Virus record (IMG/VR): IMGVR_UViG_2737471869_000029
Location: 1-8,228 of that record
Reading direction: 5' to 3' (one strand)
DNA length: 8,228 nucleotides
Source of the DNA: a virus
Taxonomy: Duplodnaviria; Heunggongvirae; Uroviricota; Caudoviricetes
The translations under genes were made by a program, and so were the position numbers. Of the stretch, positions 1-8,228 are shown one piece after another. Below the pieces are notes generated by a model. It worked only from the letters and a program-made list of their open reading frames with translations. It was not told the origin of the DNA and did no database searches. Numbering within the stretch: the stretch's first letter is position 1; every line of letters begins with the position of its first letter.

Positions 1-52
1 GGACAGGCCCACCCCACCAGGAGGACCCGCAAAAAAGGCGGCTGCTGCCGCC
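1..52. repeat. Copy A of a conserved terminator-associated element (GGACAGGCCCACC-N3-CCAGGAG-N7-AAAAAAG-hairpin)
   Basis: Positions 1-37 align with 2530-2566: 13/13, then 3 mismatches, 7/7, 4/7, 7/7. Each copy is followed by a different GC-rich hairpin. Confidence 0.55.
31..52 (-). terminator. Rho-independent terminator after the capsid gene
   Basis: Minus-strand read: GGCGGC-AGCA-GCCGCC hairpin (37-52) followed by TTTTTT (31-36), 7 nt downstream of the stop at 59-61. Confidence 0.6.
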
Positions 53-58
53 TTGTTC

Positions 59-1939
59 TCATGAAGAAATCGCTCTGACCATTCCGCGATAATCCAGAGC
101 AGCAACGCCAGCATCAATGCGGACCTTCCAGGCCACACCGTCAACAATAAAGCCCTCCTGCTGCTCAAGGTAAGGCTCGTCATTACCGTCAAGATAAGCC
201 ACCTCAATTGTGTCCGTTCCCTGTGCTGAAAGCATGTACCATTGCTTATCACTGACTTCATCAAGGCGGGGATCGACAATAATATCCAGTTGTTTGTGGT
301 ACGGGTTATATGAACCACTGTTTGTATCGGCACCAAAAGGCGTGGTTGAGTTAACCATTTGCAACGCTCTGTCTTCCAGAGCCGCTGGAACAAGAAGGAA
401 TTTTGGCACAATATTCAGCACCTCACCGTTTTCATCCCTCTGTGTGCGCATTGCACGGCGTGCAATGCCAAGCCCTGTAGTGCTGACTCCGTTATCAATA
501 TCATTTCCGTGTTTTTTGCTGAACAGCGGTATACCGTCAGAAAGCTTTGTGTTTCCTGTCAGCACCAGATGAACCAGATTACCCACCGTTCTGGCGGCTG
601 CTCGCCCCATTGCCTGCGGGATAACGGTTAACTGATTCAGATCATCGTTAATAATCGCCTGTCGGGTAATGCTGAAAATATTACCGTAGGTGGCCAGCGC
701 GATTGGTTCACCACGGTCACTGGTGGTTATGTATTTATATTCCGCACCTTCCGGCACTTTGTTTAATGTCGAGAAGCCATTCAGACCAACACGACGCGCT
801 TCATGGAAGTTTGACAATGAACCTTTTTTCGTCCACTGGCGAAATGTCTCGCCGCTTTGCTCCCATCCGGCAAGCACTGATTTTTCAGCGCCACCAGCAA
901 GGATATAAGTAAAATCGCTGCTGCTGTGGTTGAATGCCGCGTTTACTATCTGCGAGCGTGTGCTGTAGCTGCCTGTGCTTATGCCGCGATGGGTTAATGA
1001 TGCCTGTGCCATATCGAAAAGGCTCATCATGGCGTAAGGGTTTCCGCGTTCTGCCTGCTCGTGCCCAAGACGCGCATTAAGCCCCTGACGCATTGCATCA
1101 CCCGTTATGTTGCCGTTATCCGTATATGCGTAGTAAAGATTTGCAGGTGTGGTTTTGTTTGTCGGTGTCGATTCTTTACCCATAGTGAGTAAAAGACGTT
1201 CGCGCGCATCCTCAACGCTACACCCTGAATCAGCAAGACAACTTATAGCCAGGTCGTTATATCTTCCGTTGAACGTACCGAACAACTCACGGATCCCGTT
1301 GAGTCGTTCCTGTTCTCCGCTGGTCGTTTTCTGGCTGATCATGTTCTTAATATTTTCCGGCATATTTGAAAAATCTCCGATTCGTTTTGATTCAATTCGG
1401 GCCATTGCTGTAATCGCGGGTATAACCTCGTCTGCGAAGCCGTTAGCCTTACACTCATTGCCATCCATCCAGGTTTCCGCCTCCATCATGGCGGTGATTT
1501 CCTGTTTGCTCCTGCCCGTTCTTCCGGCGTAGGTTTCAGCCATCGTGTCGCCCAGCTTGTCCATCAGGTCAGCAAAGCGGCGAACGTCGCCCGACACTCC
1601 GGCAGTAACACCACGGGGGGCATGTATCATCATCATTGCGTTTTCAGGCATAACGATGTGATCGCCACACATGGCAATAAACGAGGCCATAGAAGCCGCC
1701 ATGCCTTCAATGTGTACAATTTTCTTTGCCGGATGATTTTTCAGGGCGTTATAGATAGCCAGCCCTTCAAAGATGTCGCCACCAGGTGAATGGATGCGAA
1801 GATGGATTTCAGACGCATTACCACACGCGTTGATCTCGTCAGTAAGTGCCGATGCTTTTACACCGTACCCGCCGATCTCGTCATAAATGCGCACATAGAC
1901 AACATCTGCCATAGCCTTAATGGAAAACCATGTTTTCAT
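59..1939 (-). CDS. Prohead serine protease (ClpP-like) fused to HK97-fold major capsid protein, 626 aa
   Basis: N-terminal ~190 aa carries ClpP/S14-like motifs (HSPGGD, GMAASMAS with the nucleophile Ser, MMMIHAP with the His). The C-terminal ~400 aa has a phage major-capsid-like tail (FLLVPAALEDRAL ... GFIVDGVAWKVRIDAGVAALDYRGMVR). AGGAG sits 7 nt upstream of the ATG at 1939, and the start overlaps the upstream ORF stop (ATGA). A hairpin with T-tract follows the stop. Confidence 0.7.
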   Translation of the reverse strand: MKTWFSIKAMADVVYVRIYDEIGGYGVKASALTDEINACGNASEIHLRIHSPGGDIFEGLAIYNALKNHPAKKIVHIEGMAASMASFIAMCGDHIVMPENAMMMIHAPRGVTAGVSGDVRRFADLMDKLGDTMAETYAGRTGRSKQEITAMMEAETWMDGNECKANGFADEVIPAITAMARIESKRIGDFSNMPENIKNMISQKTTSGEQERLNGIRELFGTFNGRYNDLAISCLADSGCSVEDARERLLLTMGKESTPTNKTTPANLYYAYTDNGNITGDAMRQGLNARLGHEQAERGNPYAMMSLFDMAQASLTHRGISTGSYSTRSQIVNAAFNHSSSDFTYILAGGAEKSVLAGWEQSGETFRQWTKKGSLSNFHEARRVGLNGFSTLNKVPEGAEYKYITTSDRGEPIALATYGNIFSITRQAIINDDLNQLTVIPQAMGRAAARTVGNLVHLVLTGNTKLSDGIPLFSKKHGNDIDNGVSTTGLGIARRAMRTQRDENGEVLNIVPKFLLVPAALEDRALQMVNSTTPFGADTNSGSYNPYHKQLDIIVDPRLDEVSDKQWYMLSAQGTDTIEVAYLDGNDEPYLEQQEGFIVDGVAWKVRIDAGVAALDYRGMVRAISS

Positions 1940-2130
1940 AGCCAGGCTCCTAACGTTGCCCTGTACCAGTATTCAACCGCGCTGCGTGTGATTTGTCCTT
2001 TCGTGGGTACCGGCATACCCGGGTGATTGTCTTTGATGAACTGCTGATAGCGTTCGATCTTCTCCATAGTTCCGGCGTCTATGTGTACCGTGGCACTTTT
2101 ATCCGGCTTTCTGGTGTTGTTCTCTGGCAT
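1936..2130 (-). CDS. Hypothetical small protein, 64 aa from the ATG at 2130 (track gives 75 aa from 2163)
   Basis: GGAGG lies 8 nt upstream of the ATG at 2128-2130; the ATGATG at 2163 has no SD. Its stop overlaps the capsid start (ATGA), suggesting translational coupling. No recognisable motif. Confidence 0.5.
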   Translation of the reverse strand: MPENNTRKPDKSATVHIDAGTMEKIERYQQFIKDNHPGMPVPTKGQITRSAVEYWYRATLGAWL

Positions 2131-2212
2131 AAATCCGCCTCCGTTTTGATTAACGGGCATCATTATTGATCGATAAAAGTAATAGATAAATCATTTTCTA
2201 CCTGAAAATTAG

Positions 2213-2218
2213 ATTATA
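2213..2218 (-). promoter_or_regulatory. Candidate -10 hexamer (TATAAT on minus strand) for the small-ORF/capsid operon
   Basis: Perfect TATAAT on the minus strand about 80 nt upstream of the ORF start. No good -35 at 17 bp, which would fit an activator-dependent promoter. Confidence 0.25.
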
Positions 2219-2250
2219 TTTTTCTGATTATTCTCAGAGAGGCAAATCCA

Positions 2251-2280
2251 TTGACGCATTTTTGCTATTGAAGCAATATT
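2251..2280 (+). promoter_or_regulatory. Candidate sigma70 promoter on plus strand (TTGACG-N18-AATATT)
   Basis: TTGACG at 2251-2256 and AATATT at 2275-2280. It points rightward into a region with no plus-strand CDS but a strong plus-strand terminator 45-80 nt downstream. Confidence 0.3.
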
Positions 2281-2286
2281 AAGACT

Positions 2287-2361
2287 CGTCATCCTGGCGA
2301 TAAAAACTCCTTTGTCGTGTAAAAGCGCCTCCGGTAACAGCAATCGAGGGCGCTTTTTTTT
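2287..2361 (+). ncRNA. Candidate small RNA (about 75 nt) between the plus-strand promoter and terminator
   Basis: Bounded by the promoter candidate at 2251-2280 and the intrinsic terminator at 2325-2361. No ATG-initiated ORF inside. Purely structural inference. Confidence 0.2.
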
Positions 2362-2375
2362 GCGCCTGTTTTTTT
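2325..2375 (+). terminator. Strong plus-strand intrinsic terminator (tandem hairpins with T8 and T7 tracts)
   Basis: GCGCC(2325-2329) pairs with GGCGC(2349-2353), followed by T8 (2354-2361). A second hairpin GGCGC(2349-2353)/GCGCC(2362-2366) is followed by TGTTTTTTT. On the minus strand the T-tract is only TTTT. Confidence 0.55.
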
Positions 2376-2529
2376 GTAAATGTTTTCGGGAACGCTCCAG
2401 TGATGAACAAAAAACAACCTGATTCGACACTAAAAATTTTTATTCCTCAATATATCAATAACTTATAGTGGTGGTGATGGTGCCATAAAAATCAAAAAAT
2501 GCGCCTTTTTCCGCGCCCGCCCGCCCCGT

Positions 2530-2581
2530 GGACAGGCCCACCAAGCCAGGAGTACCTACAAAAAAGCCGGATTGCTCCGGC
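2530..2581. repeat. Copy B of the conserved terminator-associated element
   Basis: GGACAGGCCCACC (2530-2542), CCAGGAG (2546-2552), AAAAAAG (2560-2566), then hairpin GCCGGA-TTGC-TCCGGC (2566-2581). Preceded by an unusual CCGCGCCCGCCCGCCCC tract. Confidence 0.55.
2560..2581 (-). terminator. Rho-independent terminator after the 90-aa ORF
   Basis: Minus-strand read: GCCGGA-GCAA-TCCGGC hairpin followed by TTTTTT, 20 nt downstream of the ORF stop at 2601. Confidence 0.6.
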
Positions 2582-2600
2582 TGTGTGCTCACTTCTTCGG

Positions 2601-2873
2601 TTATTCTCCAGCGCTTTTAACGTTGATGGTTGTTACCTCTTCCGCTTCGGCAATCTCCCGCTCTGTCAGCGTGGCAAAGTTTGCCGCCGTCGTGGTCATG
2701 AATGCGCTTATCAGTTCGGGATGTGCTTTCGCATATCCTTCCCCCGCATGGCGGTCTATCGTTCTGATTGCCACCTTTAAAGCGTGCTCTGTCATGTCTA
2801 ACGCGCGATATTTCGGTTCTGTTCTGTCTCTGCGTTTTTTGAGTGATTTATTAAATTTCCCTGAAGTGTGCAT
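2601..2873 (-). CDS. Hypothetical protein, 90 aa, immediately downstream of the origin
   Basis: ATG at 2871-2873 with GAGGGGG about 11 nt upstream; own terminator downstream. Ala-rich helical-looking sequence with no motif I can name. Confidence 0.5.
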   Translation of the reverse strand: MHTSGKFNKSLKKRRDRTEPKYRALDMTEHALKVAIRTIDRHAGEGYAKAHPELISAFMTTTAANFATLTEREIAEAEEVTTINVKSAGE

Positions 2874-2919
2874 ATTTATTTTTACCCCCTCGTTTAAAAA
2901 GTTTTGAGTTGTGCCTCCC

Positions 2920-3150
2920 CTTGTCTACCTTATCTACCTTAGTGGCCATCATGCCAGTAATGGCGCGGCTTTCAGCGGGGTAGAGTGCTTTTATCCACTA
3001 TCTACCCCGTGTCTACCTCCCTGTCTGATTCAGGTAAAATCAGGTAGAGAGGGTAGATAGTGGGTAGACAGTAAAAAAAGGCTATCTACATAACTTAATG
3101 CACTGAATTAAATGTATTTTTCTTTACTCAGGTAGACAGGGTAGACAGCA
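2920..3150. repeat. Iteron-type replication origin: at least 10 copies of GGTAGA(C/G/T)(A) in both orientations around an AT-rich core
   Basis: TCTACC orientation at 2924-2929, 2933-2938, 3001-3006, 3012-3017. GGTAGA orientation at 3043-3048, 3052-3057, 3063-3068, and tandem GGTAGACAG at 3131-3139 and 3140-3148. AT-rich segment at 3072-3128. Sits directly 3' of the primase-helicase stop (3162). Confidence 0.65.
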
Positions 3151-3161
3151 ATTACAAAAAA

Positions 3162-4910
3162 TTATAAAAACGCGTCGCACTCGTCTGTTGTTATTGCGTT
3201 AGTCTGCGTTACTCCCTTAACTTTCCGCGTAATATATTCATGTCCGTAAACTTTCGCGGCTGGCTTCATAGCCTTGCCAAAGTCATTTACGTTTAGCGGT
3301 TTGCTCCTGCCTGCGTACGCCATAAACGCCAGATAGACGCGGTAAAGGCTGTTCCTGGTCGTGTACTTCACTGAATCACCACCGCCACCCATCATCAGGC
3401 CGCGCGCTTCCTCCAGAAAATTCAGGAACTGGCAAAACTCAATAACCGGATCCGTCTGTTGCTTTATTGCCAGTGCTTCATCACCGTCACGCTGTTCCAG
3501 TAGTAAAGCCCGTGCCTTCTCAGGGTCGGTAAAGTTCGCCAGCAATCGGCGGATAATGACAGGGATTTCAGCCGCGATCTTTTCCGGTAGCTCCCTGTCT
3601 TTTTCGGCCTCACTGACGATATTGTCGAAACGGAAAATTACGCGACGACGTGACACACCTCCGGCCCGTTCGGTGAATATCATCGGGTTATTGTTGGTAG
3701 CCAGCACCACCGCCCTGATTACCGCCGTAAAACGCTTCTCATATTTCGGGTTTATTTCCACGGGGTCGCCGCCCGTGATTTTCTTGATGCCCGTTCCTTC
3801 GCCTGTATATTTCGGCTGGTCAGCCAGGACGATAAGACGACTCCCGACAACCTGCGCACGTCCACCAGCATCATCAAGCGATGTCATCTCCGCGCTCACC
3901 GTGTTCTGTTTCCCTGCCAGAAGGCTGGCTATGTGCGTGAATGTACTTTTACCGCTCCCGCCGTCTCCGGTGGCCTCAATAAACATCTGCCAGTCGTACC
4001 GGTTCGCCATAATCATGTACAGCGCGGCACATATACGCATCATCTTGCGCGGGTCTTTTCCGGCTGCGTGCTCAAGCCATTTATGAAAGTTTGGCGCGTT
4101 ATCGCGGATGTTCTCCCCAGGTGCTGGTGGCGTGTACTCAATGCCGTTGTGCGTGGTGATCCAGTTCTCCGGCGTGTGCGGGGAAAATTCCCCCGTTTTC
4201 AGGTCAAGCGCACCATTGGCGAACGGCAACAAATCGCCGGACGGCTCGCCCATTGGTTCGGCAATAACTTTTAACGCTTCCACGGCGTTATTGATTACGC
4301 GCTTGCTGAAAGTGGCCCTGTGCTCTGAATAGATCGCCACCATTTCGCGGCTAAGTTCCATTGTGCTGACCGGACACCATACCCCGCCGCGCCATACGTG
4401 AACGATTTCACTTTCCGGATGCACACAAACGCCATCAAATCGACCAGCAAGCATCTGTGCGCGCTCACTGTCTGCCATTTGTGCCAATTGCGTATTTTTC
4501 TGCTCCGGCATGGTAAGCCCTGCGGCAATATTTTCACGCTCAGCATTCAGATAGCGCCGCCAGTTTTCACACTTCTGGACGTGCATTCCTTCGGGGTAAA
4601 AATTTGCGTCCTGAATATCTGCCGCCGCCAGCTTCTGACCAATCTTCTTGGTCTCCACTAAATCCAGTTCTCCGGCCTGGTACAGCCTTACGCGCTTTTT
4701 CCCATCCGGAACAATTTTCAGCGCATCAAGTTCGGCAAGCTGATTTGGCCCAAGCCACACAGGCGGCACATTATCGCCGGATGCGGGGCCATCCTGCTCC
4801 TGCCATTGTTCCGCGTGTGACCAGGCATCACTACCCGCAAAGATAATTACCTCTGTGTCTTTGTGTTTTATTCCGCGTGGCTGTTTTTTTACGTTCGGTG
4901 CCAGTTTCAT
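3162..4910 (-). CDS. Replication primase / SF3 helicase (P4 alpha-like, D5 family; PICI pri-rep type), 582 aa
   Basis: Walker A GDGGSGKST and a downstream hydrophobic-acidic stretch (LIVLAD) typical of D5-like helicases; large N-terminal domain. Start ATG overlaps the upstream ORF stop (ATGA). Iterons lie immediately downstream. Confidence 0.88.
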   Translation of the reverse strand: MKLAPNVKKQPRGIKHKDTEVIIFAGSDAWSHAEQWQEQDGPASGDNVPPVWLGPNQLAELDALKIVPDGKKRVRLYQAGELDLVETKKIGQKLAAADIQDANFYPEGMHVQKCENWRRYLNAERENIAAGLTMPEQKNTQLAQMADSERAQMLAGRFDGVCVHPESEIVHVWRGGVWCPVSTMELSREMVAIYSEHRATFSKRVINNAVEALKVIAEPMGEPSGDLLPFANGALDLKTGEFSPHTPENWITTHNGIEYTPPAPGENIRDNAPNFHKWLEHAAGKDPRKMMRICAALYMIMANRYDWQMFIEATGDGGSGKSTFTHIASLLAGKQNTVSAEMTSLDDAGGRAQVVGSRLIVLADQPKYTGEGTGIKKITGGDPVEINPKYEKRFTAVIRAVVLATNNNPMIFTERAGGVSRRRVIFRFDNIVSEAEKDRELPEKIAAEIPVIIRRLLANFTDPEKARALLLEQRDGDEALAIKQQTDPVIEFCQFLNFLEEARGLMMGGGGDSVKYTTRNSLYRVYLAFMAYAGRSKPLNVNDFGKAMKPAAKVYGHEYITRKVKGVTQTNAITTDECDAFL

Positions 4911-5206
4911 TTTTTACCCCTGAATACGTTAAGCATCTTTTTTATTTCCTGAATATTGGCGCGTGCTTTCTCCCTGCTGGTGGGCACGTTATGCGGCGCG
5001 GTCTGTACAAGAGAAAAATCACGCCGGAACTGATAAACAGGCATCACGCAATCATATTCGTAACCCTCACGGCGGTAAGTTACGCACCGTCCCGCCACGC
5101 CCTTAATCATTACCGTGCCGCCGTACTGGTCGCGGTAAATATCACCGCGCGTAAATTTAGGGTGAGTGTTGCCACTGGCAGTTAAGCCAGAATATTTAAG
5201 TTTCAT
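4907..5206 (-). CDS. Hypothetical protein, 99 aa, coupled to the primase-helicase
   Basis: ATG at 5204-5206 with GGAG about 11 nt upstream; stop overlaps the primase start. No recognisable motif. Confidence 0.55.
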   Translation of the reverse strand: MKLKYSGLTASGNTHPKFTRGDIYRDQYGGTVMIKGVAGRCVTYRREGYEYDCVMPVYQFRRDFSLVQTAPHNVPTSREKARANIQEIKKMLNVFRGKK

Positions 5207-5211
5207 TATTT

Positions 5212-5442
5212 TTATTCTCCGGTGTGGGGCACGTTATTATTTTCGTGAATTGCCATTGCCTTATCCAGTTCATCAATAACAGGCGATAGTAATGTCTGAA
5301 TGGCTGCAAACATTAATACACCTGATTCCTCACCACCTTCCGGCACTTCAATTAATTTAATTAACAACGCATTCATTTCGCGCGCTTTAATTAATGCGTT
5401 TTCAGAGTGGATTAATACTTCAAAAGGGATTTTATGCATCAC
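5212..5442 (-). CDS. Hypothetical small protein, 75-76 aa (GTG at 5442 or ATG at 5439)
   Basis: GGGAG lies 7 nt upstream of the GTG; the start overlaps the stop of the upstream 66-aa ORF (GTGATG / TGA). Helical, acidic sequence. Confidence 0.5.
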   Translation of the reverse strand: MMHKIPFEVLIHSENALIKAREMNALLIKLIEVPEGGEESGVLMFAAIQTLLSPVIDELDKAMAIHENNNVPHTGE

Positions 5443-5639
5443 AAAATTTCTCCCTGGCGAATACGGGCGGCGAATACCATCACGCAGCCATCAGGAGATT
5501 GCTGGCGTGCTTCCTGTTCGCTGGTGGCCTCAATGGTAATCACGCGCGGTTGTGCAGTGCTCAGGGCGATAAAACGCCAGATGTATTTATTCAGGTTGTG
5601 CGAGTCCCGCCCTTGCGGGTGTGTAGTATGATTTCTCAT
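5439..5639 (-). CDS. Hypothetical small protein, 66 aa, first gene of the leftward replication operon
   Basis: ATG at 5637-5639 with GAGGT 5 nt upstream. It is the C-terminal part of the 303-aa track ORF, which I reject as a whole. Confidence 0.45.
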   Translation of the reverse strand: MRNHTTHPQGRDSHNLNKYIWRFIALSTAQPRVITIEATSEQEARQQSPDGCVMVFAARIRQGEIL

Positions 5640-5735
5640 AGCTACCTCGATACTGTTGCTATCGTTGGTGGTTAGAAGCCCGGTTAGTGTTAGCGCACTG
5701 CCGGGTTTCGTCGTTTCTGCACCTTGCATCAACAA

Positions 5736-5810
5736 GGTGTTGAACACCAATTTAAACCTAGGTGTTAAACACGTCAAGTGTTGAACACTTGTTTTTTTTC
5801 CTGCATACTG
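5736..5810. promoter_or_regulatory. Genetic switch: three palindromic operators GTGTTnAACAC over back-to-back divergent promoters
   Basis: Operators at 5737-5747, 5762-5772 and 5778-5788. Leftward promoter candidate (minus strand) TTGACG 5772-5777, N17, TAAATT 5749-5754. Rightward candidate TTGAAC 5781-5786, N17, CATACT 5804-5809. Confidence 0.6.
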
Positions 5811-5838
5811 CATTTGTTTTTTGTGAGGGGGACACAAC

Positions 5839-6018
5839 ATGGCGACAAAAGCAGTAAACGCAAAATCACAAACAGTTGCGGCAAGGGTTCCGCATGAAGT
5901 TATGAACAATGTTGAGGCGGTAAAAATGCCTGGTGAAAGTACAGGGCAGTTTGTAACAGCAGCATTAAAGCGAGAAGTTGAGTACCGCCAGCGCCGCAAG
6001 GCCAAAGAATCAGAATAA
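5839..6018 (+). CDS. Small ribbon-helix-helix-like DNA-binding protein, 59 aa (not in the ORF track)
   Basis: ATG at 5839 with GAGGGGG 6 nt upstream. Sequence MATKAVNAKSQTVAARVPHEVMNNVEAVKMPGESTGQFVTAALKREVEYRQRRKAKESE fits an RHH (Arc/CopG-like) beta-helix-GxS/T-helix pattern. Transcribed divergently from the replication operon. Confidence 0.55.
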   Translation: MATKAVNAKSQTVAARVPHEVMNNVEAVKMPGESTGQFVTAALKREVEYRQRRKAKESE

Positions 6019-6075
6019 TAACTATCATCGCCGTGGTGTGAGGAACTCCGGCGCATTGCTTTACAGGTACACAGA

Positions 6076-6249
6076 ATGACCAACAAAGAATCAACCAATA
6101 CACCATCACCGGCACGGAAAAGACGGCGCAGAAAGATAGAGCATGAATCAGAAAGATTCGCGCCATGTGCTTTTGCCCTTGAGCAATTCCTTAAAGAGTA
6201 CAGGGAAACGCGCTCATTGCAGGTATGGCAACGAACTGAACCAGACTGA
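6076..6249 (+). CDS. Hypothetical small basic protein, 57 aa (not in the ORF track)
   Basis: ATG at 6076 with a weak AGGT SD 7 nt upstream; same frame as the RHH ORF. Arg/Lys-rich N-terminus (ARKRRRRK). A plus-strand terminator follows. Confidence 0.3.
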   Translation: MTNKESTNTPSPARKRRRRKIEHESERFAPCAFALEQFLKEYRETRSLQVWQRTEPD

Positions 6250-6313
6250 TTGCATTGCCCACCAGCCTGATAGCGGCTATCATCCCCGTGCTTATGTTTA
6301 GTGCTTTCCCATT

Positions 6314-6344
6314 GGCGACCGCCCCCGGTCGCCTTTGTTTTATG
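6314..6344 (+). terminator. Plus-strand intrinsic terminator ending the rightward small operon
   Basis: Perfect 8-bp stem GGCGACCG / CGGTCGCC (6314-6321, 6326-6333) with a 4-nt loop, then TTTGTTTTATG. No T-tract on the minus strand. Confidence 0.6.
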
Positions 6345-6360
6345 TGTCATATGCTCCCCT

Positions 6361-6570
6361 TTACACTGCCTTACCTGAATTAATGCGATCCCGGCTTTTA
6401 ACCCATTCCATAACCTCGGACAGCAGCCACCCTACAGAACGACCGCCCAGATTAAGACGTGACGGAAAGCGCCCTTTTTTCTCCAGTTCGTAACGTGTAG
6501 TGCGGCACACTCCAGTTAACTTACGACATTCATCCTCACGGATTACGCGATCTTCATTTATTTCACGCAT
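6361..6570 (-). CDS. alpA: AlpA-family (excisionase-like) transcriptional regulator, 69 aa from the ATG at 6570 (track gives 98 aa from a GTG at 6657)
   Basis: Conserved AlpA core CRKLTGVCRTTRYELEKKGRFPSRLNLGGRSVGWLLSEVMEWV. The 87 bp between 6571 and 6657 is very AT-rich, promoter-like, and has no SD before the GTG, so I prefer the ATG start. Confidence 0.82.
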   Translation of the reverse strand: MREINEDRVIREDECRKLTGVCRTTRYELEKKGRFPSRLNLGGRSVGWLLSEVMEWVKSRDRINSGKAV

Positions 6571-6693
6571 ACAAAAACCTACATAAAAATTACGTATATA
6601 AACTTTTCTCTTAGCTGTAGATATATGAGATCGGATATTACTTAGATTCTTTTTCACCTCTTAAATTAAAAACACAACCATGCTAAAGGCTTT

Positions 6694-6720
6694 GTTCGCT
6701 AAGGTTCGTAGAAGCTCGTT
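6694..6720. promoter_or_regulatory. Three 10-bp-phased direct repeats G(T/C)TCG(C/T)T upstream of alpA
   Basis: GTTCGCT at 6694, GTTCGTA at 6704, GCTCGTT at 6714: exact 10-bp periodicity. Confidence 0.3.
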
Positions 6721-6911
6721 AGTGTTTAAAATCGTGTCACGAGTTTTTAAGCGACGCAACAAAAAATGTCGTCATTTGGCATGACACCTGAATCACCTCA
6801 TTAAAAACAAATAGATAAACCATCAGGTGTTGGAACAATCAAGAAACAGAGAATAAGAACTCAGAAGAAGACATTTCAAATTTTTTCGATAGTTGACACA
6901 TATAAAGAGAA

Positions 6912-6983
6912 GATATTTGCAGATATTCCCCGATATTCTAAGATCTATTCACGGCTGTAATCTCTTAAAGAAAAAACAGCCGT
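6912..6983. promoter_or_regulatory. 10-bp-phased GATATT repeats plus an 8-bp inverted repeat just downstream of the int stop
   Basis: GATATT at 6912-6917, 6922-6927 and 6932-6937, with a degenerate GATCTATT at 6942-6949. Inverted repeat ACGGCTGT (6951-6958) / ACAGCCGT (6976-6983) with a 17-nt A-rich loop. A perfect TTGACA sits at 6893-6898. Confidence 0.35.
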
Positions 6984-6989
6984 AATTTG

Positions 6990-8228
6990 TCAAGAATTTT
7001 GGGGGTAAATTCGCGGGGTCATAACAACGATTTTTTCATCATTGTTCTGGAGAAGCTCGAGACGGTCTACCCATAGATTAAGAGCATCACGTTTTGCATC
7101 AAGGTAGCGGGAGTGGTTATAGACTCGTTGCATCCCTGGCATCTGGTGGGCTGTAAGCTGCTCGACAATATGCGGATCCACGCCTAAATCGTTCAGCATG
7201 GTTGTAAATGTGTGCCGGATATCGTGTAACGTCCAAGGGGCTTGATTAATTCGTCTGTGCGCTGTTCTTCCGTACTCTGCTACCGAAGATTGTCCTTTCA
7301 GTTCACCAAGCAATAAGCCCGTGTGTCTGTTCTGCTCCACCAGTTGCGTGACGAACGGCAAAATGCTTTCCGGTATTGGCCTGAATATGGCGACCTTCGT
7401 TTTGCTGTGCTCCTTCGGTACTGTCCAGAGCATTTCTTTAAAATCCCACTCCTGCACCTCAGAGCGCCTTAGCTCAGTGGTACGGCATCCAAAAACAATC
7501 AGGAGGCGAATTAGGGCGCTGTAGTATGGCGGGAATATTTTGTCATCCAGGGCGCGGAGTAATTCCCCAAGCTCCTTGTTTGTTAGTACGCGCTCGCTCA
7601 CTTCTGCTTTTTTTCCCACATCACCGACAACCATATCATCAAGAACGTTGCTGATTGCGTATCGTCGTTTTCGGCAGTACTTAAGCGCCTGTTTGCATAC
7701 CTGTAGCAAAAATCCGGCAGATACTGGGCTTCGCTTTGCCATCTGGTCAAAACATGCCAACCAGTGCCGTAGCTCGCATTTTTCCAACGGCAAAGCGCCA
7801 ATCTGGCTGATTATGTGTTTATTGATCCGGCTTTTCAGTGATTCGTAGTCAGTGCGCTTTTCCTTTGCATACGATTCAAGCCAGTAAGTGAGCGCTTCCT
7901 TAACTGTCACGGGGGCTAACGCATCCTGTACAGCACGATTAAGCTCATAGCGCGGATTTTTCCCCTCAGCCAGCCAGGCGCGACACTGTGCTGCTTTTTC
8001 CCTGGCTGCTTTCAGGCTCAGATCGGGATAATTGCCCAGTCTCAGACGTTCCGGTGATACCTGCCTACCAGTTCCGGCCCTGTAAGTGAAATACCAGGTT
8101 AACAGGCCGCTGGTGGAATGTCTTACGCTAAGATTGCCACCGTCATTAAAAAAGGCGTTTTTTGTGGTTGGTGATCCGCTTAATTTTCGTAAAAGAGTGT
8201 CGCTAAGTCTATGAATTGCGCTGCTCAT
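6990..8228 (-). CDS. int: Tyrosine recombinase / integrase, P4-type, 412 aa
   Basis: P4-int-like N-terminal arm-binding region (FNDGGNLSVRHSTSGLLTWYFTYR), catalytic motifs LHDIRHTFTT (His-x-x-Arg) and VYNHSRY (Tyr nucleophile), conserved Arg in GCRTTELRR. ATG is at 8226-8228, the window edge. Confidence 0.93.
   Translation of the reverse strand: MSSAIHRLSDTLLRKLSGSPTTKNAFFNDGGNLSVRHSTSGLLTWYFTYRAGTGRQVSPERLRLGNYPDLSLKAAREKAAQCRAWLAEGKNPRYELNRAVQDALAPVTVKEALTYWLESYAKEKRTDYESLKSRINKHIISQIGALPLEKCELRHWLACFDQMAKRSPVSAGFLLQVCKQALKYCRKRRYAISNVLDDMVVGDVGKKAEVSERVLTNKELGELLRALDDKIFPPYYSALIRLLIVFGCRTTELRRSEVQEWDFKEMLWTVPKEHSKTKVAIFRPIPESILPFVTQLVEQNRHTGLLLGELKGQSSVAEYGRTAHRRINQAPWTLHDIRHTFTTMLNDLGVDPHIVEQLTAHQMPGMQRVYNHSRYLDAKRDALNLWVDRLELLQNNDEKIVVMTPRIYPQNS

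Follow-up and report, generated by a model that had tools for sequence, protein, structure and literature searches.

Three small open reading frames ahead of the primase of an Escherichia phage satellite: family identities, a conserved operon architecture, and a candidate antisense RNA at the first cistron

We analysed three small open reading frames (ORFs) of 66, 76, and 99 amino acids (aa) that precede a primase gene in an 8,228-nt stretch of DNA, the window, which comprises positions 1–8,228 of the IMG/VR record IMGVR_UViG_2737471869_000029 (Caudoviricetes). The ORFs lie on the − strand (ORF1, 5439–5639; ORF2, 5212–5442; and ORF3, 4907–5206) and are the first cistrons of the early, or replication, operon of an Escherichia phage satellite of the phage-inducible chromosomal island (PICI) type. 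Judged by sequence, ORF1 is a homologue of phage P1 Icd in the Icd-type cell-division inhibitor family, ORF3 is an orthologue of the regulator RgdR (ECs1581), and ORF2 stands in an exchangeable slot between them. A small antisense RNA probably covers the start of ORF1, and we hold it moderately probable that, together with these identities and this architecture, such an RNA gates the coupled chain that leads to the primase. The original prediction, which was made from the letters of the window, had described the ORFs as a translationally coupled chain and as candidate helper-sensing or anti-helper factors. The observation of the ORFs is confirmed, and the interpretation as helper interference is partly supported.

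The chaining of the three ORFs with the replication gene was found with the coordinates and with the TGATG/GTGA and ATGA junctions that had been claimed. The TGA of ORF1 (5441–5439) overlaps the GTG at 5442 (GTGA) or the ATG at 5439 (TGATG) of ORF2, and the stop codon of ORF3 overlaps the primase ATG at 4910 (ATGA). The ORF2/ORF3 junction, in contrast to these two overlaps, is a 5-nt spacer (TAA 5214–5212, ATG 5206), which the original prediction had omitted. Matches in a promoter and terminator scan inside 4907–5639 were no commoner than in shuffled sequences. The three ORFs are ordinary members of known families, and RefSeq routinely annotates them as Icd-like, hypothetical, and DUF4222, respectively; the statement that none had a nameable motif was wrong for two of them (NF033153, Icd-like; PF13973, DUF4222). 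The features of the window are summarized in Table 1.

Table 1. Features of the operon and its surroundings (window positions; SD, Shine-Dalgarno sequence).
Feature	Position	Strand	Remarks
ORF1, 66 aa, Icd-like	5439–5639	−	First cistron of the leftward operon; SD GAGG at 5648–5645
ORF2, 75 aa from ATG 5439 (76 aa if GTG 5442)	5212–5439	−	Divergent phrog_2196 member
ORF3, 99 aa, RgdR orthologue (DUF4222)	4907–5206	−	Stop overlaps primase start (ATGA)
Primase, 582 aa	3162–4910	−	D5_N and P4-type primase C-terminal domain; last of the coupled chain
Proposed cis-antisense RNA, ~80 nt	5638–5720	+	Complementary to the ORF1 5′ untranslated region, SD, and edge of the start codon
Hairpin 1	5648–5664	+	CGATA/TATCG stem, variable 7-nt loop; 5′ arm overlaps the anti-SD by one base (C5648)
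Hairpin 2 and U-rich tail, terminator-like	5675–5719	+	5675–5689 pairs with 5696–5709; tail 5710–5719
Putative extended −10 of the antisense promoter	5624–5632	+	TATGAT 5627–5632, 7 nt upstream of the expected start
Leftward promoter-like site	−35 at 5777–5772, −10 at 5754–5749	−	Promoter scan
Three GTGTTNAACAC palindromes	5737–5747, 5762–5772, 5778–5788		Around the promoter-like site on the − strand
YlcI/YnfO-family gene, 59 aa	5839–6018	+	Divergent; NF041551 59.7 bits vs 30
AlpA-type ORF	6361–6657		98 aa from GTG in the mechanical ORF list; RefSeq 69 aa (210 nt) in a near-identical genome
ClpP-like protease/major-capsid fusion, 626 aa	59–1939		Sole gene with a recognisable morphogenesis annotation (window and the strain 16003 locus, L001)

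ORF1 matched the NCBIfam model NF033153 with 70.5 bits (cut-off 25) over residues 19–62, and P1 Icd itself scored 52.6 bits against the same model. A BLASTP comparison of ORF1 with P1 Icd gave 37% identity over 43 aa (pairwise E 1e-7), whereas at E 1e-3 a tblastn search of the entire phage collection with ORF1 failed to recover P1. The RefSeq annotation of ORF1 is Icd-like. As with icd in P1, which overlaps ant1 by ATGA, the gene is a first cistron that overlaps the start of its neighbour. The pN/pS value of codons 19–62 among 71 unique ORFs was 0.20, which indicates purifying selection on the ORF1 protein. A GC-rich hairpin (CCCGC CCTT GCGGG) at 5606–5619, in codons 7–11, is near-invariant in relatives; the few variants break pairs without compensation, and this structure therefore gives no evidence of selection.

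ORF3 matched the Pfam family DUF4222 (PF13973) with 82.1 bits (gathering score 27) over residues 16–68. It shares 85.9% identity with ECs1581 of strain Sakai over all 99 residues, above the >77% homology reported for RgdR orthologues (Flockhart et al. 2012, PMC3378721), and it keeps the RGD tripeptide (20–22; FTRGDIY) and K35 (MIKGV). Across the DUF4222 family R20 of the RGD motif varies (L, N, P, H). The family has been characterised since 2012: RgdR (ECs1581), a prophage regulator of 99 aa, activates the LEE1 promoter of the enterocyte effacement locus (LEE) and type III secretion, represses motility, binds DNA without specificity, and has orthologues in CFT073, ED1a, and IHE3034 (PMC3378721). 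The AlphaFold model of ORF3, with a pLDDT of 74.8 overall and ~90 for residues 21–70, predicts a five-stranded small basic β-barrel with a C-terminal helix.

In regards to ORF2, the ambiguity of the start codon that had been pointed out (GTG 5442 or ATG 5439) is real, and the homologues settle it in favour of ATG 5439, which is the best reading because full-length homologues are 75 aa long and start with M-[H/N/K]-K and because the IHE3034 gene overlaps icd by 8 nt without a GTG. The RefSeq annotation of ORF2 has 228 nt. ORF2 matched phrog_2196, a family without a curated cut-off, at E 2.5e-8 over profile positions 1–70 of 74, whereas a typical member of its cluster reached E 8.4e-42; Pfam and NCBIfam gave no match. 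The family is narrow, with 12 representative clusters among 1.84 billion proteins, and the named homologues all belong to Escherichia or Shigella and differ mostly by conservative substitutions (I/V, E/D, and K/R). An AlphaFold2 model (pLDDT 80.7) predicts a helical hairpin with helices at 6–30 and 36–68. A fold search with this model returned generic helical hairpins alone (best E 1.5), with no significant match in the PDB by fold or sequence, and a sequence search of solved structures found no relative of any of the three ORFs. Remote-homology search and structure prediction, which had been proposed as checks, thus assigned ORF1 and ORF3 to named families and gave for ORF2 a helical hairpin with phrog_2196 only.

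We compared the annotated E. coli relatives and IMG/VR loci fetched with a DNA pattern to determine how the operon is built elsewhere. The Icd-like gene is held by 132 of the 133 sequences, and 125 of them also hold DUF4222 downstream on the same strand at a distance of 200–1300 nt. The order in these 125 loci is Icd-like gene, one to five exchangeable small helical ORFs, DUF4222, and replicase. The ORFs in the slot cluster into a few families of small helical proteins, namely phrog_5146 (89 loci, often in tandem copies), phrog_2196 with the cluster that holds ORF2 (70/125 loci, usually the last ORF before DUF4222), and phrog_15327 (27 loci). The Icd-like gene and DUF4222 form a fixed frame, and ORF2 lies in the exchangeable slot. 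In E. coli genomes, BLAST matches begin at the ORF1/ORF2 junction (window 5452), consistent with a recombination boundary at this point. We abandoned the view that the slot proteins make up a single family: in a profile comparison of ORF2 with Sakai ECs1579 and ECs1580 the probability was below 1%. The ORFs are conserved across related islands, with ORF1 intact in ~100 loci and with 87 and 368 homologue clusters for ORF2 and ORF3, respectively, so the objection that they might lack conservation fails.

In 120 of 123 loci, an ATGA overlap joins the start of the replicase to the stop of DUF4222. The replicases that follow DUF4222, 119 in number, all have their first 100–160 residues in common, and the RefSeq labels of those examined are primase, DUF927 protein, or RepA-family helicase. 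The catalytic part of the replicase is swapped, whereas the N-terminal domain and DUF4222 stay together. The pattern of the shared domain, encoded in the first 100–160 codons of 3162–4910, is MK.APN.K.QP...TEVIIFAGSDAW.... The universal coupling of DUF4222 to this domain and the cassette-like slot are undescribed in the literature searched, although such an absence is not proof of novelty.

The strand opposite to the start of ORF1 carries a conserved structure, from which we infer a probable cis-antisense RNA. The + strand of 5638–5722 folds to −37.2 kcal/mol (z −5.08; 0/200 shuffles) and the − strand to −20.5 kcal/mol (z −1.52). A relaxed-threshold Rfam scan returned SymR (RF01809) at 5640–5712 on the + strand with E 0.003 and 32.9 bits, where the gathering score is 61, exactly opposite the 5′ untranslated region and SD of ORF1. 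The match to this model was 33.3 bits in the island of E. coli FORC_069 and was absent in other variants. Membership in SymR was rejected on the score, and the presumed target is Icd-like and not SymE. Among 53 unique versions of hairpin 2 with its tail, the + strand was the more stable in 52 (mean −23.8 vs −17.2 kcal/mol), and each variant has 1–4 G-U pairs, which are A-C mismatches on the mRNA strand. U-rich tails follow hairpin 2 in all variants, even with unrelated flanks (e.g., GCTTTTTTAAG in Sakai).

Covariation was measured on a 30-sequence alignment with 500 shuffles and slid controls. Paired cells amounted to 95.2% vs 87.8% in the shuffles (0/500), slid controls paired at 57% or less, cells changed on both sides numbered 25 vs 7.3 in the shuffles (0/500), and G-U pairs, mismatched as A-C on the opposite strand, occurred in 74/537 cells; these counts are supportive and represent neither independent events nor probabilities, because the sequences are related to one another and a pattern within the element served to collect them. 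Helix 2 is paired in 98.7% of cells, and three of its pairs change on both sides (A-U/C-G, C-G/G-C/U-G/U-A, and G-C/C-G). Hairpin 1 shows one compensatory change from A-U to C-G (L061).

The putative antisense −10 box is also conserved: TGGTAT[G/A]AT or TGGTATATGAT is present in 125/131 occurrences, including loci with a different N-terminal coding sequence. The synonymous divergence of ORF1 was 0.022 in codons 1–18 and 0.203 in codons 19–62, and an overlapping nucleic-acid signal would give such a tenfold suppression of synonymous change. Many genome matches end at window 5705–5740, at the hairpin, so ORF1 and its leader behave as one module. Whereas the stem of hairpin 1 is constant, its loop (5653–5659) differs between island variants (CTGTTGC, CTTTCGC, CGCTTTC, CTCTCGT, AATCTTG, and others), and genomes hold up to 6–7 matching places. 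In antisense systems, such loops set specificity.

Several observations weigh against an antisense RNA that acts in the window. The element is not in Rfam 15 at threshold, and its only match there is the sub-threshold one to SymR. In the window, the U-rich tail is broken (GUCGUUUCUG), and no clear −35 accompanies the −10 box. Relatives have TGG before this box, and the window alone has TAG at 5624–5626 (1/131); the change is synonymous in ORF1 (ACT for ACC, Thr5) but abolishes the TG of the extended −10, so the antisense promoter may be weak in the window. The suppressed divergence of codons 1–18 could instead reflect a translation-initiation constraint or the recent spread of a recombination module. 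Furthermore, a supplement on Hfq crosslinking in enterohaemorrhagic E. coli (EHEC) lists no small RNA at the homologous Sakai position (NC_002695.2, about 1597429–1597509, − strand). Position 5625 (+) is A in the window and G in 130 of the 131 related sequences, including the nearest relative, strain 16003.

The missing −35 and the mutated extended −10 also speak for an alternative in which the + strand structure is a terminator that insulates against stray antisense transcription, or a DNA hairpin such as a single-strand initiation site for the primase, and in which the constraint on codons 1–18 stems from translation initiation or mRNA structure. G-T wobble is tolerated in DNA hairpins too, a terminator-like element alone does not prove a dedicated promoter, and the conserved GC hairpin inside ORF1 shows no compensatory change. 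However, the −10 hexamer keeps a fixed distance from the complement of the start codon even where the upstream coding sequence is unrelated (L055, Sakai type), U-rich tails follow hairpin 2 in every variant, and the geometry matches SymR-symE, with the Rfam model aligned from end to end. We regard this alternative as unlikely, and the antisense gate as a well-supported computational lead. The element is absent from the literature and libraries searched, which is not proof that it is new.

The proposed gate would work as follows. In the resting island, the YlcI/YnfO-family protein would repress the leftward promoter via the three palindromes, while a constitutive RNA of ~80 nt from the opposite strand would pair with the ribosome-binding site of ORF1 and block the translation of leaky transcripts. 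Since the cistrons are tightly packed (TGATG, 5-nt gap, and ATGA), a block at ORF1 should lower all downstream cistrons, the primase included, through lost coupling and possibly Rho-dependent polarity. When a helper phage switches the island on, sense transcripts would outnumber the antisense RNA and the chain would be translated; the Icd-like protein may then arrest or harm the cell, and RgdR may act with the replicase or on transcription. Against this last step, the published phenotypes of RgdR concern host virulence genes.

The logic of the gate is taken from P1 and from relatives of the window. The P1 record annotates C4 RNA sites over the start and ribosome-binding region of icd, the ATGA overlap of icd and ant1, and the remark 'Icd apparently required for expression of ant'. 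Islands of E. albertii (L005 3353–3541) and E. coli FORC_069 (L006 1750–1954) contain canonical IsrK, c4-a1b1, and C4 elements above the Rfam gathering scores, in one operon with Icd-like genes. In the former the elements lie upstream of the Icd-like gene, and in the latter within what is annotated as a second Icd-like gene; FORC_069 has both the C4/IsrK unit and the cis-antisense type in one operon. On the basis of these annotations and true C4/IsrK elements, we propose the same gate logic with a cis-encoded RNA. A wider form of the proposal, which we put forward tentatively and rate as somewhat less than an even prospect, is that an undescribed family of ~80-nt SymR-like cis-antisense RNAs gates the early operons of Escherichia PICIs by masking the ribosome-binding site of the Icd-like cistron. 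The hairpin-1 loops and hairpin-2 types would then be specificity groups by which co-resident islands are controlled independently, and DUF4222/RgdR would be a dedicated partner of the replicase N-terminal domain, its LEE effect being a side activity.

The interpretation in the original prediction, that the three ORFs are helper-sensing or anti-helper factors like P4 epsilon and the early genes of PLE and SaPI, retains its satellite setting, the conservation of the ORFs, and a precedent in the ECOR strains. The ORFs are in the early position of a satellite, and the middle slot is a site of variable cassettes, as one would expect of conflict genes. In ECOR61, death brought on by a phage accessory gene is suppressed by insertions in an Icd-like gene and in two overlapping small ORFs adjacent to it; rebuilding the effect took six linked genes, among them a primase, and removal of the Icd-like gene abolished it; transposon hits in ECOR15 fall in the integrase, AlpA, Icd-like, hypothetical, and primase genes of a P4-type satellite (10.1101/2023.04.06.535777, Silas et al.). 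These screens link cell death set off by phage accessory genes to Icd-like genes and the small ORFs beside them, and indicate that satellite operons of this kind can act against phages. The claim did not hold in respect of similarity to P4 epsilon, PLE, or SaPI factors or in respect of sensing, which the literature on Gram-negative PICIs assigns to activation by AlpA. None of the three ORFs matched a PADLOC model, and the matches in Pfam, NCBIfam, and PHROGs were confined to the families already named. Moreover, the Icd-like and DUF4222 genes are invariant frame genes, unlike arms-race factors, only the ORF2 slot is variable, and the published activity of RgdR is on host LEE1 and motility and not on a helper phage (PMC3378721). 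As a description of all three ORFs, we consider helper interference rather unlikely.

The reading of ORF3 (RgdR) as a virulence 'moron' that regulates the LEE type III secretion and motility of the host and stands before the primase by accident is improbable: the phenotypes of Flockhart et al. (PMC3378721), the PerC-family regulator of the nearest relative island, and the O145:H28 EHEC host speak for it, but DUF4222 is present in 125/133 loci, is tied to the replicase by the ATGA overlap and inherited together with the replicase N-terminal domain, has RgdR orthologues in LEE-negative uropathogenic, neonatal-meningitis, and commensal strains, and does not conserve the arginine 20 of the RGD motif.

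The operator-controlled leftward promoter that had been postulated upstream of the ORFs has a counterpart in the promoter-like site with its three GTGTTNAACAC palindromes, compared with 0.26 expected by chance and none elsewhere in the window. The divergent YlcI/YnfO gene occupies the same position in every annotated relative, and its product is likely to be the repressor that acts at the palindromes. We took a 303-codon frame (303 aa) at 5439–6350 on the − strand, in frame with ORF1, to be spurious: it crosses the promoter and, in antisense, ylcI, it contains the remnant of a decayed BRO-N gene (~6018–6350), and its upstream ATG at ~5722 is without an SD. At the corresponding position in relatives, RefSeq has long 'Icd-like' or 'ash family' ORFs or pseudogenes (a 477-aa coding sequence in L007, and pseudogenes in L006, L010, and L012), and these long calls are probably an annotation artefact.

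Over the 2 kb that were compared, the window shares 99.7% identity with E. coli O145:H28 strain 16003, and 1870 of 5426 complete E. coli genomes match parts of the region. In strain 16003, an island of ~10 kb sits between yljB/cspD and clpS and contains an integrase, an AlpA-type regulator, the divergent YlcI/YnfO gene, the three ORFs, the primase, the ClpP-protease/major-capsid fusion, and a PerC-family regulator. This layout is that of the Gram-negative PICIs (Fillol-Salom et al. 2018), with int, alpA, and primase/replicase in one orientation, a small size, a specific chromosomal site, and no lysis or tail genes. Neither the window nor the strain 16003 locus has the gene set of the capsid-forming PICIs (cf-PICI, EcCIEDL933 type), whereas Sakai Sp7/CP-933C has the full packaging set of that type. 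The DNA of the region had no match among 50,697 phage records, the ORF1 and ORF3 proteins each matched a single small satellite-like record in the phage collection, and a species-level genome scan with ORF3 returned two loci only. The Pfam AlpA domain covers residues 36–86 of the 98-aa form of the AlpA-type ORF. The PerC-family regulator (L001 5993–6295) and RgdR represent two LEE-related regulator families in one satellite of an EHEC serotype. Just 3′ of the primase stop, at 2917–3151, at least nine copies of the motif GTCTACC/ATCTACC occur in direct and inverted orientation and include a 38-nt imperfect inverted repeat (2980–3017/3052–3089). This cluster is probably the replication origin of the island (iterons), and the miRNA-like Rfam matches at 2917–3151 are spurious because of its repeats.

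These islands are very common in E. coli and carry virulence regulators (RgdR and the PerC family) between strains. The invariable link of DUF4222/RgdR to the replicase suggests a native role of RgdR in the cycle of the satellite itself, and this role would put a regulator known from EHEC virulence in a new light. Should the replication operon work as a relay with the Icd-like cistron as its entry, the initial step of satellite activation could be tested directly. The antisense RNA, if real, would add a second, RNA-based layer of quiescence in Gram-negative PICIs, where only AlpA activation has been described; it would also account for the tolerance of a toxic Icd-like gene and would bear on the satellite-borne cell-death phenotypes in ECOR strains.

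Among known systems, SymR-SymE (RF01809) resembles the proposed RNA in length, in the two-hairpin shape to which its model aligns over the full length, in being antisense to a small, potentially harmful gene at its SD and start, and in a promoter inside the first codons. The score lies far below the gathering score, however, variants with other hairpin-2 loops lose the match, and the target is unrelated to SymE; the resemblance is one of design, and homology is not implied. The left operon of P4 is, like the operon of the window, an early operon of a satellite with a primase at its end, and a small RNA that acts on its own leader keeps it in check, as is proposed for the window. The CI RNA of P4 arises from the sense leader by cleavage and terminates transcription prematurely via seqA and seqC, whereas the RNA of the window would be cis-antisense, and scans of the window ORFs with Pfam, NCBIfam, and PHROGs gave no homologue of P4 epsilon, kil, eta, or cII.

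The immI operon of P1 (C4 - icd - ant1/ant2) shares with the window a small Icd gene as the first cistron overlapping the next start and an RNA complementary to the ribosome-binding region of that gene, which is known in P1 and proposed in the window. C4 is encoded upstream on the same strand and is processed, whereas the RNA of the window would come from the opposite strand; the window gave no match to RF01695, RF03163, or RF01394 at E up to 1, so C4-type control from the same strand was not found. The downstream cargo is an antirepressor in P1 and consists of small ORFs and the replicase in the window. In the ECOR61 and ECOR15 loci (10.1101/2023.04.06.535777), which we compare by their published description, an Icd-like gene, overlapping small ORFs, and a DNA primase are found as in the window; a difference is that in ECOR61 the Icd-like protein carries a long extension at the N-terminus (122 aa). 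The island that carries RgdR in E. coli O157:H7 (Sp7/CP-933C/O-island 51) differs in backbone, with a full capsid and packaging module where the window has the protease-capsid fusion, and in slot content and operator sequence. RgdR of the Sakai allele acts on LEE and motility, and the ORF3 allele is likened to it by sequence: both are 99 aa long with RGD and K35 kept, and in both islands, which have the int-alpA-primase organisation, the gene lies directly upstream of the primase and overlaps it.

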